Below, piece after piece: positions 4,165 through 58,926 of a stretch of DNA of 64,000 bases. This stretch comes from Octopus vulgaris (lineage: Eukaryota). The translations under genes were made by a program, and so were the position numbers. Below the pieces are notes generated by a model. The model ran no database searches, was not told the origin of the DNA, and saw only the letters and a list, made by a program, of their open reading frames with translations. The DNA lies in assembly GCA_951406725.2 (NCBI GenBank), contig OX597837.1:1860001-1924000 (forward strand). Direction: 5' to 3'. Numbering within the stretch: position 1 is the first letter of the stretch; each line of letters opens with the position of its first letter.

Positions 4165-4293
4165 GGTTAACAATTGTTTCCACTACTTGAGGTAACCAAT
4201 CACACACAATGTCTATAGATATTCATGACAAAGACGGTATAGTCATGAGTATCATGCTATGCATATTACACTGGAAGCTGTTTCATCAGAACC
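4165..4293 (-). ncRNA. Type I hammerhead ribozyme motif with long stem II
   Basis: Reverse complement reads ggtt-CTGATGA-[~100 nt with an internal hairpin gatactcatgac/gtcatgaatatc]-GAAA-caattg-TT-aacc. Stem I is ggtt/aacc, stem III is palindromic, and the cleavage triplet is GUU. The base of stem II is imperfect. Confidence 0.7.
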
Positions 4294-4989
4294 GATTCTT
4301 CATCAACTTGGTCCTCGCGAAACAACTGCTGGTGATATTACGTGGCATACATTGCTTCACGTTCATAACTAAATCTTGCTTAATATCCATGTATACTGGT
4401 GAGATGAAACAGTTGTAAACCATGAAATAAAAGTTATACTACAAATTCTACTCTTCCCGTATTTTATTTATATTGTAAGATGGCAGTAAACCTTACGGAT
4501 TTGTTGTTTGTTCGAACCCTGATTTTCCACAAGAAAAGTTCTTTATACAACTTCAGGTCGCCAGTAATTATGAGTGCTCTCTCCCGGTTTTTCTAACTCT
4601 CCCTTCCTTTTCAGATATTATATATATATATATATATATATATATATATATATATATATATATATATATGTATATAATTTTTTTAACTTATCTCTACAGA
4701 TATTCTGTAGAAATCAGAGCCAACACTAAAAGTTACGACTTTACATATACGAATACGTCTATGCAAACAATGCCATCAAAGATAGGAAAAAAAGGTTATG
4801 CGTCTATAGGCATATTTCAAGAATTGTTACTCCGATCCATTAACCATCCACGAACTCATTGCTTAAATTAGCCACCAAATTTAGCTATTATATATTTATA
4901 TATATATATATATATATATATATATAACAAAGGCGGTACAGTCAGGCGTATTATGTTATGCATATTACACAATAGCCCTGGAAGTTGTT

Positions 4990-5298
4990 TCTTCAGTGGT
5001 AAGAGCGTCGTGTTCCCAATCACGAAGCAGTGAGTTCTATTCCTAGGCGAGGCTTTGTGTTGTGTTCTTGGGCATGACACTTTATTTCATATTGCTCTAG
5101 TTCACTAAGGTGTAGAAATGAGTTGCCAAGTTACTGGTGCCAAGCTGTATCTGCCCCTTTGCCTTTCTCTCGGATAACATCAGTGACTTGGAGAGGGGTG
5201 GCTGGTGGCTTCTATAAACACTCTTGCTCGGACTTGTGCCACGGAAGGTAACTTTTCAGATGCAATCACATACTCATATATGACCGAAGGAAGTCTTT
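4990..5298 (+). mobile_element. tRNA-derived SINE (family C), decayed
   Basis: A/B-box-like head (cagtggtaagagcg...gagttctattcct) and ttgtgttcttgggcatgacacttt core; similar to copies at 22845, 34977 and 40638. Confidence 0.7.
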
Positions 5299-5389
5299 AC
5301 ACTTTATATATATTCAATATGTGACCGCGTGTGTATCGTTGGCGATTTTTCCCTCCGTCTTCCCTTCCTTGGATCTTTCCTTTTCCTAT

Positions 5390-5424
5390 GTTTCTGACGA
5401 ACACCTCCGCTCGAAACGTTAAAT
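5390..5424 (+). ncRNA. Minimal hammerhead ribozyme remnant within a ~210-bp TA-flanked element (5312-5521)
   Basis: gttt-CTGACGA-acacctccgctc-GAAA-cgtt-aaat. Core is intact and stem III is the palindrome AACGTT, but stem II pairing is damaged. Confidence 0.55.
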
Positions 5425-6166
5425 CCTCTTTCTTTCTTTCCTGATCGTCCAGTAACACTATACTTGTTCCACGTTCTTGCGTTGTTGTGTTTTCTCTTTG
5501 TGTTTTCATGTTTGGATTAACTATATATATATATATATATATCTATAAACGCTAGGCAGACGGGTTATATAGGTAATAGACAGATAACTGCTACAGACCA
5601 GAAAGAAAGTGTGATATAGGTAACGAATAGATGAGTGTTATAAACGTGGACTGAAGAGTGACATGGACATGCATAATGAATGTTGGGGACTGGTCAAGTA
5701 AATGTGTGACTTCAGCATTAGACAGAGGAGTACCGAAGGTATTGTACAAATGAGTGACATTACTAGACACTGAAGTGATTTTAGACTCTGGATTAATGAG
5801 TGATATAAACTATAGACATTAGGGATTGAAATAAAACCAGCGCTGGAAATAACTATGGTAGGTCGTTTAGACCTAAATTTACGACATTTTTTTCAGTTCC
5901 AGCCTCGAACCGATGTTTCCTACCCAGAGCCTAACAAGTGAAAATCTCATCCTTATATTTTAGTCAACAATATTAGTTGTTTCGCACACAATATAAACTC
6001 ATCAACCCAAAAATTCATTAATGAATATTATTACTAATTATAGTTATTACTAACTTATGATTAATTTGGTAATTTTAATTTATGACCTTAAATTTAATTC
6101 CTTTTTTCTTAAAGTTTCTGTTTTTTCAACACTTTTGGTTTTGTTTTTTTGTTTTTTTTTTTTCAG

Positions 6167-6326
6167 AGAATTCTACGAGATCCTTTCCCTAGATCCAGAA
6201 TTCTTGTCGCAGGCCAAAGATGAGACCACCAATATCAGTGTCTTTGCCCCGTCAGAGGGATTTTTGATGACAATCGGTAGAGAAAAGATGAAAGACATTA
6301 AGAATGACTTCCAAGTAATAAGAAAG
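6167..6326 (+). CDS. Internal exon A of a fasciclin (FAS1) domain protein
   Basis: Poly-T tract + cag acceptor (ends 6166) and AAG|gtaaaa donor (6327). Translates (phase 2 in, phase 0 out) EFYEILSLDPEFLSQAKDETTNISVFAPSEGFLMTIGREKMKDIKNDFQVIRK. SVFAPSE matches the FAS1 H1 motif (TVFAPTN/D). Confidence 0.88.
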
Positions 6327-56087: not shown

Positions 56088-56515
56088 ATATATATATATA
56101 TATCGATATTTGAGAGCAGAGCTAGTCCATACAAATGTGTGATTGTTTTGTTAGGTCTGGTACAATGACTCACTTCCGAAGATGCGAGTGTCGCAACATG
56201 TGGCCATGTTGTAAGTCGTTAATAAACACATTATCTCTACACTTCTTAAACATTCATGTTTGAGTGACCTCTTCTTACTGATTATTTTAAACACTCTGAT
56301 ACGTCCCTCTACCACATCCGCATATACATATATATACACATACATATATATATATGTATGTATATATATATATACATATACATATATATATGTATATATA
56401 TATATATATATGTATAGACCGGAGTAAACACATAAATGTGAAACAAGGTGGAAAAAAGAGTACTCAAATACCAGTGGTAGAGTAATATGCTTTATTTTAA
56501 GCAGCAGAAAATTCA

Positions 56516-56567
56516 ACAAAATCTGTTACTCTGAGTTTCTCGTTGCCGTTCATCAGACAGTTTTTGC
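56516..56567 (-). ncRNA. Identical hammerhead ribozyme in the inverted pLTR
   Basis: Exact reverse complement of 58875-58926. Confidence 0.88.
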
Positions 56568-57225
56568 TAGAATGGAACATATATATTAATTCAATCTATA
56601 CTCTTACAAACGCTACACCTTTAAAAAGAAATGGACTTGTTTGATTGGCCCTTTAGAAAAAACGGTCAATCTTCGAGCGATAAACAAAAAGGTCAAAAAT
56701 ATATGTATATATATATATAAAAACTTATAAAAATTATAAAATCCGAGGAAAATACCGAGGAAAAAACCTGTTGCCGTTAATGAAGACAGTACAAATTAAT
56801 GCATAGAAATTAAACCTGTTATAAATACTGCAATACATATTTATATTAAAATCCACATATATATATCAACATACACAAAAGGATGCGCGTAAACGCCATA
56901 CATACACATACAGACGTATGAATATGAATCTAAATTATACACATAAAAGCATGTGTACATATATTCACGCAAACCGTCTCGCACGCAAGCTAAAATTCAT
57001 CTATGTAGCAATTCTCATATACTGAGCAAGGGGGGGGAACGAAAGAAAGGGAAAGAGAGAAAAAGGAACGGAGGAGGGGTGGGGGGAAAACTTGTAGCTA
57101 TGTTATTTGGCATCTATAGAGGCCTGTATACATACACAAGTTTGAATTGATACATATACATACCGTCGTGTATATGTGCGCTTAAGCACAAGCATACTTT
57201 CACTCACACATACACACATACACAG

Positions 57226-57867
57226 ACTAATATAGGTAAGGAATTTTTGAGATTAGTCTCTAAGCATTTTAGGCAGGGTCATAAATTCTACAGAATATTT
57301 AATAGAAGAACCCTGAAGGTTAGCTATTCTTGTTGCAGAAATTTCGCCTCTTACATTAGCCAACATAATAGGAAGCTAATTGAGATTAGACATGGTGCCG
57401 AGCCCATTAAGAAATGTAATTGCAAAAACGAAAGCTCCTGTCCGTTAGAAGGGAAATGTCTAGTGAAAGGAGTAGTTTATAGAGCCAAGGTGCAAGTGGA
57501 AGGCTCATCGGAATACAAGACATACACAGGGGCTTCAGAAAATTCATTTAAAACAAGATTTTATTCTCATAAGAATTCTTTTAAATACCCAGAGAATAGA
57601 AAGAAAACCAGCCTAGCAAAATATGTCTGGGAACTAAAAGAAAAGGAAGCCCCACCTTTCAACGTGACATGGAGCATTCTGGACAGGGCGGCACCATACA
57701 GGCATGGAGCTTACAAATATAATTTCAAGTGCAGGCTTTGCTTATTAGAAAAAATGCATATATTATTCAAAGACAATAATTCTTTGAATCAAAGAAGTGA
57801 ATTAATGAACTTATGTAGGCACAAGGCTAAATTTAAAATGTCGAATATAAATATACCATATGGATAG
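57226..57867 (+). CDS. C-terminal fragment of a Penelope-like element ORF: Cys-rich linker + GIY-YIG endonuclease (no RT, no ATG)
   Basis: Frame is open from the inversion junction (TNIGKEFLRLVSKHF...). Motifs CNCKNESSCPLEGKC, GVVYRAKV...TYTG (GIY-YIG), FKTRFYSH, CRLCLLEK, SLNQRSE and CRHK; stop at 57865-57867. Confidence 0.9.
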   Translation, partial: TNIGKEFLRLVSKHFRQGHKFYRIFNRRTLKVSYSCCRNFASYISQHNRKLIEIRHGAEPIKKCNCKNESSCPLEGKCLVKGVVYRAKVQVEGSSEYKTYTGASENSFKTRFYSHKNSFKYPENRKKTSLAKYVWELKEKEAPPFNVTWSILDRAAPYRHGAYKYNFKCRLCLLEKMHILFKDNNSLNQRSELMNLCRHKAKFKMSNINIPYG

Positions 57868-58874
57868 AGTATATATTTTGTATTTTGATTTTTTGATTTT
57901 GATTTTGACTCTTGAGAGCTACAACGGACCTATAGCAAAGTCTTATTGTTTCTACATATATATTAGGAAAAACCTACAAACTTTGTTTTCATGTTATTGT
58001 ATTGCATAAGATTACCTTGATTATTTATATTACCTTGATTATTTATAAATGACCCAAAATAGGATGTTATATTTTATTTTATAGGTCTTTCGTATATATT
58101 TTTATTAATGCACCCATTTTTTAAAAGCAATGTTTTTTTTTTATAAAAAAAGCAATGTTGTCAAATTTAGAATGTTTATATAAGTTTGTGTATAGCAAAG
58201 CATATGTATTTGTAAGCATGCGTATCTGTGTATGTGTGAGTGAAAGTATGCTTGTGCTTAAGCGCACATATACACGACGGTATGTATATGTATCAATTCA
58301 AACTTGTGTATGTATACAGGCCTCTATAGATGCCAAATAACATAGCTACAAGTTTTCCCCCCACCCCTCCTCCGTTCCTTTTTCTCTCTTTCCCTTTCTT
58401 TCGTTCCCCCCCTTGCTCAGTATATGAGAATTGCTACATAGATGAATTTTAGCTTGCGTGCGAGACGGTTTGCGTGAATATATGTACACATGCTTTTATG
58501 TGTATAATTTAGATTCATATTCATACGTCTGTATGTGTATGTATGGCGTTTACGCGCATCCTTTTGTGTATGTTGATATATATATGTGGATTTTAATATA
58601 AATATGTATTGCAGTATTTATAACAGGTTTAATTTCTATGCATTAATTTGTACTGTCTTCATTAACGGCAACAGGTTTTTTCCTCGGTATTTTCCTCGGA
58701 TTTTATAATTTTTATAAGTTTTTATATATATATATACATATATTTTTGACCTTTTTGTTTATCGCTCGAAGATTGACCGTTTTTTCTAAAGGGCCAATCA
58801 AACAAGTCCATTTCTTTTTAAAGGTGTAGCGTTTGTAAGAGTATAGATTGAATTAATATATATGTTCCATTCTA

Positions 58875-58926
58875 GCAAAAACTGTCTGATGAACGGCAAC
58901 GAGAAACTCAGAGTAACAGATTTTGT
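58875..58926 (+). ncRNA. Minimal type I hammerhead ribozyme of the PLE pLTR
   Basis: gcaaaa-a-ctgt-CTGATGA-a-cg-gcaa-cg-a-GAAA-ctcagag-TA-acag-a-ttttgt. Intact core, GNRA-capped mini stem II and near-palindromic stem III; GUA cleavage predicted after 58915. Confidence 0.88.

Follow-up and report, generated by a model that had tools for sequence, protein, structure and literature searches.

Hammerhead ribozyme motifs at an Octopus vulgaris locus as probable 3' ends of many Penelope-like element families

A 64-kb stretch of the Octopus vulgaris genome (contig OX597837.1, C24:1860001-1924000, from a 2.80-Gb genome of 227 contigs; hereafter the window) is scattered with type-I hammerhead ribozyme motifs that abut microsatellites, and the question it raises is what kind of element leaves them there. 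A preliminary description of the window had listed seven type-I folds, three folds with a CCGA core and several decayed ones, and had proposed a largely uncatalogued set of solo pseudo-long terminal repeats (pLTRs) or non-autonomous elements mobilised by Penelope-like elements (PLEs) such as the one at 56-59 kb. Our analysis favors a different emphasis: with a probability of roughly 0.8, many autonomous PLE families carry these ribozymes in their own 3' ends (pLTRs), and the motifs are what remains of such ends in short, 5'-truncated copies that were left to decay in (TA)n tracts.

The window (37% G+C, 132 tandem-repeat rows) was scanned with a type-I descriptor consisting of stem I, CUGANGA, stem II of at most 130 nt, GAAA, stem III, UH, and stem I'. 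Six intact motifs were found, with C3 of the core at 4289(-), 27803(+), 28411(+), 45814(+), 56556(-), and 58886(+), and two more, at 52269(-) and 52306(+), when U4C (a CCGA core) was allowed; families are named below after window positions, and other loci carry L numbers. The mean expectation from 300 dinucleotide shuffles is 0.01-0.03 matches. A genome sample of 80 evenly spaced 10-kb stretches (800 kb) held 21 canonical motifs, 7 of them in one tandem array, and five shuffles of it held none. In the shuffle comparison proposed by the preliminary description, motif frequency is thus far above that of shuffled sequence. Six of the seven folds first listed as type I are intact, at coordinates that match one end of stem I; the seventh, at 5390, is a damaged copy (stem II GAGC changed to CACC) of a family in which 24 of 30 copies satisfy the descriptor. 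The CCGA cores at 52213(-) and 52300(+) are likewise intact, whereas that at 45146 is damaged in this copy, though 17 of its 25 relatives satisfy the descriptor and CCGAUGA occurs in 21 of 25. Sites listed as decayed at 24609, 32713, 38509, 49612, and 50066 proved to be damaged or half copies of real families, but the unit at 48380 and 53731 was not accepted as a hammerhead. An Rfam scan of the window gave no hammerhead family among the best 150 of 372 matches, which microsatellite hairpins dominate, and a repeat finder returned predominantly simple repeats and was informative for the inverted arms only.

Variant cores were surveyed in the same 800 kb by allowing 18 single changes and the U3-A8 pair. 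Only U4C (5 matches), A6U (7), and U3-A8 (5, with 0-2 per shuffle) were enriched; the other 16 changes together gave 5 matches, which is chance level (2-9 per shuffled 800 kb). Some cores that had been taken for decay, A6U at 24609 and U3-A8 at 32713, are family-level variants, and decay was rejected as the origin of the CCGA and CUGU cores. U4C was found beside U4 relatives in four groups (5390, 45146, 52306, and 58886). Families with a U3-A8 core were also seen at L078:8996, L086:7050 and 8385, and L110:9809, the last with a retrozyme-like CAAUA loop II. A UUGAAAA match at window 2392(-) is likely due to chance, as relaxed single matches can be, and was rejected as a ribozyme.

Such relaxed matches are what an origin by chance in AT-rich, repeat-rich DNA would have to build on, at the shuffled rates given above. 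That origin is refuted for the main motifs by the shuffle comparisons (6 versus 0.01-0.03; 21 versus 0), and multi-copy families stand behind all but the relaxed matches; we assign it a negligible probability. The preliminary description had also recognized PLE-type hammerheads by their palindromic stem III, and this too is borne out: unfiltered, stem III is palindromic in 23 of 34 matches (6 of 14 distinct sequences, 7 of the matches being one array) versus 0 of 8 in shuffles. The palindromes form no hairpin and have self-duplex energies of -1.7 to -11.1 kcal/mol.

The impression of many families was correct, with 43 sequence clusters among 230 distinct motifs from all loci (15 clusters in the sample), a few singletons among them being likely chance matches. 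Microsatellite adjacency also holds up: of 25 sampled motifs, 22 have a microsatellite at most 130 nt downstream, whereas among random positions (n = 3099) the share is 28%. On the upstream side, a microsatellite accompanies 19 of 26 motifs. For genome estimates, the two stretches adjoining the window were dropped and the array was counted once, giving a 780-kb basis with 36 intact motifs, compared with 8 in the window, where density is about threefold higher. The proposed rate of one module per 4-6 kb therefore applies to the window only, and with decayed copies counted (about 15 insertions in 64 kb, several motifs being two arms of one insertion). Extrapolation gives about 54,000 canonical-core motifs (95% confidence interval (CI) 25,000-86,000); once the three core variants are counted too, the figure for intact motifs rises to about 108,000 (95% CI 68,000-151,000). 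First-look searches, whose candidate numbers are not copy numbers, returned 1281 candidates for the 27803 family, 3607 for 5390, 4201 for 24609, 1170 for 45814, 296 for 28411, 9 for 4289, 1720 for 45146, and 106 for 52306. In each of the eight larger families the 3' end is fixed and falls within (TA)n, at a distance of 35-110 nt beyond the predicted cut, while the 5' ends are ragged and truncated and tails are frequent; the sparse 4289 set is the exception. Copies of the 27803 family, for example, are about 85% identical and have a fixed 3' end with an optional tail of about 200 nt.

Four families, two Hydra-type and two Neptune-type, could be linked to an open reading frame (ORF) with reverse transcriptase (RT) and/or GIY-YIG endonuclease sequence upstream of the ribozyme. 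The PLE traits of partial tandem or inverted copies, 5' truncation, and a tail at one end were also observed. Full ORFs were recovered for the 58886 and 24609 families and endonuclease ends only for 52306 and 5390. The term solo pLTR used in the preliminary description suits the copies well, but its non-autonomous passengers are not borne out in these four families, each of which is linked to an RT/GIY-YIG element of its own. In two further families, at L309 and L088, long-stem-II motifs lie directly downstream of a Hydra-type RT/endonuclease.

Long copies of the 24609 family extend into a GIY-YIG C-terminus, and a search with this endonuclease end returned 30 loci, 26 of which carry a CUGUNGA motif downstream. 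In two full-length copies that are 98% identical to each other and have 1050- and 1119-codon frames, CUGUNGA occurs in both pLTRs. Of 97 copies collected from this family, which has a core variant in place of the canonical core, 89 could be parsed; position 6 is U in 85 of these, C3 is kept in 86, G5 in 88, G8 in 84, and A9 in all 89, and N7 varies by subfamily (U58, A17, C10, G4). This A6U family, with its intact ORFs, is young and recently spread. It has the motif set of Neptune elements (DKG, a CX2-5CxxC linker, and CCHH), which is common to Nematis, so the Neptune name rests on by-eye comparison. Locus L398 has GxRF, DKG, a CX4CX2C linker, two cysteines between GIY and YIG, a Pfam RVT_1 match, and a weak GIY-YIG match, and its RT N-terminus is closest by eye to the Neptune1_Ap row of PMC8557442. 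Further Neptune-like PLE remnants, about 25-30% identical to the A6U element, occur at L093, which carries its own hammerhead elsewhere in the stretch, and at L142, L203, and L357. Just upstream of the window, an unrelated, Hydra-type motif at L124:6281(-) also has A6U, and its relative in L083 has A6; this one copy is a possible second origin of the variant.

The 56-59 kb element consists of a 5'-truncated copy and, head to head with it, a shorter copy in inverted orientation. Its family (58886) is young as well: all 150 scored matches reach at least 98% identity, and a 727-codon frame is present in 30. The unit is 3356 bp; copies end in (TA)n either 37 or 110 nt past the predicted cut, the 73-nt tail being the start of the next unit, and in tandems the ATG sits 175 nt past the cut. 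The protein has RWK, DKT, a CxCX5C linker, CxxC, and CxH at residues 53, 129, 578, 683, and 711, lacks CCHH, and targets (TA)n, in agreement with the motif descriptions of the Hydra clade (PMC8557442). Because a Pfam search with the ORF returned no family, the clade assignment rests on these motifs. Contigs from four presumed-RNA runs cover the unit, with transcript ends and levels not readable from them. The 52306 family is tied, at 4 of 25 loci representing 3 insertions, to a second Hydra-type endonuclease that is 33% identical to the first.

Both Hydra-type families have one tailed and one untailed outer end. This was so in 19 of 19 inverted loci of the 58886 family (20 fetched, one of them tandem only), with one end unreadable past the junction, and in 22 of 22 two-armed loci of the 52306 family (25 fetched), which represent 21 insertions; together, 40 of 40 inverted insertions are asymmetric. 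A tail at one end only has often been seen in PLEs (PMC8557442), and in vitro the tail spans the interval from one internal start site to the other, with both strands extended (PMC11167929). The one-tail rule is consistent with one start site per strand, and the count provides genomic support for the two-start-site model, which in vitro work has so far demonstrated in one element. Some head-to-head junctions coincide with a short palindrome, CTAG being one example.

In ten full-length Hydra copies, the start of the upstream pLTR varies from -55 to beyond -1200; in three it falls between -101 and -120. This spread argues against a fixed start and suggests that longer or circular templates are also used. 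Short copies of the two Neptune-type families have a preferred 5' end, which gives some support to the defined mini-unit of the preliminary description: 13 of 37 A6U-type incidental copies (p = 5e-5) and 5 of 16 5390-type copies (p = 0.02) begin no more than 8 nt from a single site. That site precedes the predicted cut by about 100 nt and reads TCAGT or TCATT. We take this sequence to resemble the initiator consensus. Penelope itself has an internal promoter (PMC2377424), and run-off at the RNA 5' end is the likely cause of the preferred unit. No pile-up of 5' ends was found where the cut is predicted: in a biased set of 229 ends, 4 lay 5 nt or less from it. Because 5' ends there are few, cDNAs would mostly be made across an uncut or re-joined site.

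On the pLTR-end reading, then, the element protein would cut both strands of a TA tract, as in vitro work indicates (PMC11167929), and each cut end would prime cDNA at one of two internal start sites. Short pLTR copies likely abound because each insertion begins copying just downstream of the ribozyme. The cDNAs would stop early or run off the RNA 5' end at the pLTR promoter, yielding the preferred short unit, and the template would cross the cut site uncut or re-joined, so that cleavage would not be part of insertion. The ribozymes would instead cut slowly, as dimers through palindromic stem III or with protein aid, to process tandem transcripts (PMC4209133). Most genomic copies would then be dead and decay neutrally.

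Several observations weigh against this reading. No ORF was reached for the 4289, 27803, 28411, 45146, and 45814 families in 8, 30, 25, 25, and 25 loci (113 in all), and their shared 5' extensions, up to about 620 nt, are non-coding; no link could be made between these families and the RT remnants beside three of their copies (L306-L308; copies of 27803 and 45814). The link for the 5390 family hangs on one copy, among 60 loci, that reaches an endonuclease related to that of the 24609 family. The families are multi-copy, as the preliminary description anticipated, but its covarying stems were not found within families, where stem II changes mostly break pairs (broken versus compensatory cells 93/6 in the 27803 family, and 48/3 and 32/0). 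Long stem II regions span 55-102 nt; compared with shuffles, the fold is better in the 27803 family (z = -3.7) and in the 45814 family (z = -4.1) but not in 28411 (z = -1.1). Across related families, pairs of stem I switch from C-G to G-C or G-U and loop II and N7 vary, among rows chosen by the descriptor. Finally, the preferred 5' end fits self-propagating short elements as well.

This last point leads to the view that the commonest short units are true non-autonomous elements, in which a solo pLTR is transcribed from a promoter within it, retains the site where reverse transcription begins, and is copied in trans by PLE protein, much like a short interspersed element (SINE). The initiator-like site in two families and the internal promoter of Penelope (PMC2377424) speak for it, as do the five families lacking an ORF link. 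The best candidate for such an element is the 48380-type unit of about 110 nt, both ends of which are fixed between (TACA)n tracts in 9 of 9 copies. We rejected it as a ribozyme on its core, which reads CCAAUGA in 7 of 9 copies, and on its stem I, which is not adjacent to the core. It is also the only unit with SINE-like fixed ends; the two ORF-linked families have a preferred, not fixed, 5' end. Trans-mobilisation is, in addition, likely in this genome, as a canonical non-LTR retrozyme array of 353-359 bp units (five on the plus and two on the minus strand; L061:2100-4790, in C1:20000001-20010000) is joined head to head, with both ends in (TA)n and one end about 40 nt longer. At this single locus, a non-coding retrozyme bears the PLE insertion signature. 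Tandem units with periods up to 500 were sought around every window motif and none was found, L061 lying outside the window. However, most incidental copies begin elsewhere (24 of 37 and 11 of 16), longer copies of both families with the preferred end extend into ORFs, and run-off from the 5' pLTR of a full transcript would yield an identical unit. We regard this explanation of the commonest units as unlikely.

A second alternative concerns the changed-core families, whose fold might no longer cut but persist for its structure, which the protein or the initiation of reverse transcription would use as a signal. It draws on the fixation of A6U (85 of 89) in a young family with intact ORFs and 98% identical full-length copies, on pairwise mutagenesis of one hammerhead, in which changes of the CUGA region other than a C3/G8 swap had low activity (PMC9901934), and on ribozyme mutants that left PLE insertion in vitro unaffected (PMC11167929). 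Yet the A6U family keeps C3, G5, G8, and A9 while N7 varies by subfamily, the enrichment of just three core changes points the other way, and natural A6C and U4C hammerheads retain low activity, A6C being slow (PMC3088659). We hold a loss of cutting to be somewhat improbable. Both a non-autonomous share and non-cutting variant folds can coexist with the pLTR-end reading. A bolder proposal, which we advance tentatively and at less than even odds, is that the A6U Neptune element is actively spreading and that A6U, U4C, and a stem II of about 100 nt are tolerated since the ribozyme serves as a slow, protein-dependent switch or an RT-start landmark, not as a free cutter; run-off and one-tail double priming would then seed about 100,000 mini-units, and the same machinery would insert retrozyme arrays.

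How do these elements compare with known systems? With Hydra-clade PLEs (Craig et al. 2021, PMC8557442) they share RWK, DKT, CxCX5C, the absence of CCHH, the (TA)n target, inverted 5'-truncated copies, a tail at one end, a 4-bp palindromic stem III, and a stem II whose base often contains a mismatch. The motif at 56556/58886 is almost the same as that of the Hydra-2_aMil row (stem I CTGT/ACAG, stem III ACTC-x-GAGT), and the stem III of 32716 is identical to that of Hydra-1_oBim. In contrast, the Hydra rows of File S2 of that paper all have a short stem II and CUGA cores, as opposed to the 55-102 nt, U4C, or U3-A8 seen here, and they list one octopus Hydra family, compared with tens of clusters here. 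The word "uncatalogued" thus fails for the kind, which is published, and for that one element and its ribozyme, and is otherwise partly right. Like the minimal metazoan PLE hammerheads of Cervera and de la Pena 2014 (PMC4209133), the 5390 and 24609 motifs have an extra base after A9, G10.1-C11.1, and GAAACGUH, and most copies are solo or in opposite-strand pairs. The descriptor of that study requires CUGANGA and short stems and would miss A6U, U4C, and long stem II; its counts reach about 9,000 per genome, versus the canonical-core estimate of about 54,000 here. It also described the U3-A8 variant, and cleavage of PLE hammerheads as dimers is on record (PMC4209133; PMC6765202). Relative to Neptune-clade PLEs, to which we assign it by motifs and by eye, the A6U element differs in having the A6U core in both pLTRs. 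In PAc Poseidon (Frangieh et al. 2024, PMC11167929), protein assists the ribozyme, and insertion does not require it; there the ribozyme overlaps the ORF start, whereas here it lies 175 nt or more upstream, and the one-tail rule was counted here in genomic copies of two families. Non-LTR retrozymes (Cervera and de la Pena 2020, PMC7229834; bioRxiv 10.64898/2026.07.22.740005) likewise carry type-I hammerheads in short non-coding repeats and have been proposed to depend on PLEs, but they are tandem 150-450 bp repeats with canonical ribozymes and the window units are non-tandem.

In the literature searched, which excludes the PLE-variant survey of Lunse et al. 2017, no A6U (CUGUNGA) hammerhead was met, nor did the search turn up the octopus PLE hammerhead features described here, though that survey could contain cephalopod motifs or A6U. 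It reportedly covers dimeric PLE hammerheads and many variants. The kind of element is known; compared with print, the scale, A6U in a young element, recurrent U4C, the 55-102-nt stem II, the tail asymmetry, and the preferred short unit appear to be new, with cleavage itself predicted from sequence. The features of the window are collected in Table 1.

Table 1. Hammerhead motifs, related element ends, and hammerhead-like units in the window.
Feature	Positions	Strand	Remarks
Intact type-I hammerhead of an old low-copy family; stem II region 102 nt, stem III ACAAUUGU	4165..4293	-	Found by descriptor; 9 genome candidates
3' half of a 4289-family ribozyme, likely inverted mate of 4289	4405..4445	+	Not in preliminary description
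5' half, further copy of the 4289 family	4913..4996	-	Not in preliminary description
Neptune-type pLTR end with preferred 5' site, to (TA)n; minimal hammerhead 5390-5424, stem II damaged	5313..5522	+	
pLTR end of A6U (CUGUNGA) Neptune family; core start 24640; copy with G8A and stem II change	24518..24708	-	
Intact hammerhead, 96-nt stem II region, Hydra-like stem III	27798..27922	+	Found by descriptor
Intact hammerhead, 63-nt stem II region	28407..28497	+	Found by descriptor
Decayed head-to-head pair, cores 32613(-) and 32716(+), stem III ACCAAUGGU	32557..32780	.	Family majority core UUGAAAA (U3-A8 type)
3' half (GAAA, stem III, stem I') of a family intact elsewhere (relative L404)	38477..38534	-	
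CCGAUGA-core hammerhead, damaged copy (stem II and stem III changes)	45146..45193	-	U4C normal in this family
Intact hammerhead, 73-nt stem II region	45810..45910	+	Found by descriptor
Unit of ~110 nt between (TACA)n tracts, hammerhead-like non-conforming core	48345..48445	-	Not accepted as ribozyme
Decayed copy of the 45146 family	49612..49659	-	
Decayed long-stem-II hammerhead; intact relative in L118	50066..50148	-	
Tailed arm of miniature head-to-head PLE insertion; CCGAAGA hammerhead 52213-52275	52112..52280	-	
Untailed arm of the 52112-52390 insertion; CCGAAGA hammerhead 52300-52362, end in (TA)n	52296..52390	+	
Decayed copy of the 32716 family	52422..52545	+	Not in preliminary description
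Second copy of the 48380 unit	53713..53815	+	Not accepted as ribozyme
Inverted 5'-truncated arm of Hydra PLE, 73-nt tail; hammerhead 56523-56560	56417..57221	-	
5'-truncated Hydra PLE: GIY-YIG end of ORF (57220-57867), 3' untranslated region, hammerhead 58882-58919, untailed (TA)n end	57224..58952	+	

Other repeats were noted in the window. A broken long interspersed element at 10010-12510 (-) has Pfam RVT_1 and Exo_endo_phos matches. A stretch at 41821-42030 (+), ending in (TAA)n and without a Pfam match, presumably derives from the C-terminal end of an R4/Dong-type element, and 55464-55847 (-), without a matching Pfam match, is what we take to be a mariner transposase remnant. Ribozyme-free dispersed repeats of about 200 bp at 8233-8602, 24714-25063, 32115-32308, 50765-50957, 22096-22333, and 28964-29157 are likely SINEs. 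Tiny head-to-head PLE ends (window 52112-52390 and 32557-32780; L083, L087, and L134) form TA-flanked hairpins, and such small hairpins could pass for miniature inverted-repeat transposable elements (MITEs) or microRNA precursors; weak Rfam microRNA matches fall at 52244-52331.

For annotation, it matters that short ribozyme units resemble SINEs or MITEs; a recent octopus repeat annotation counts, as recently active, 893 SINE families without a classification, and ribozymes are never mentioned in it (PMC13282606). If our estimate holds, the motif count of this genome nears that of the axolotl, at 126,247 the largest reported figure we met (PMC7229834). The role of the hammerhead in endonuclease-bearing PLEs has been called unclear (PMC8557442), and a young family with a natural core change, beside close relatives with a normal core, makes that role directly testable. 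Should the ribozyme indeed act as a switch or landmark, the octopus genome would be a natural test bed for the purpose of PLE ribozymes.

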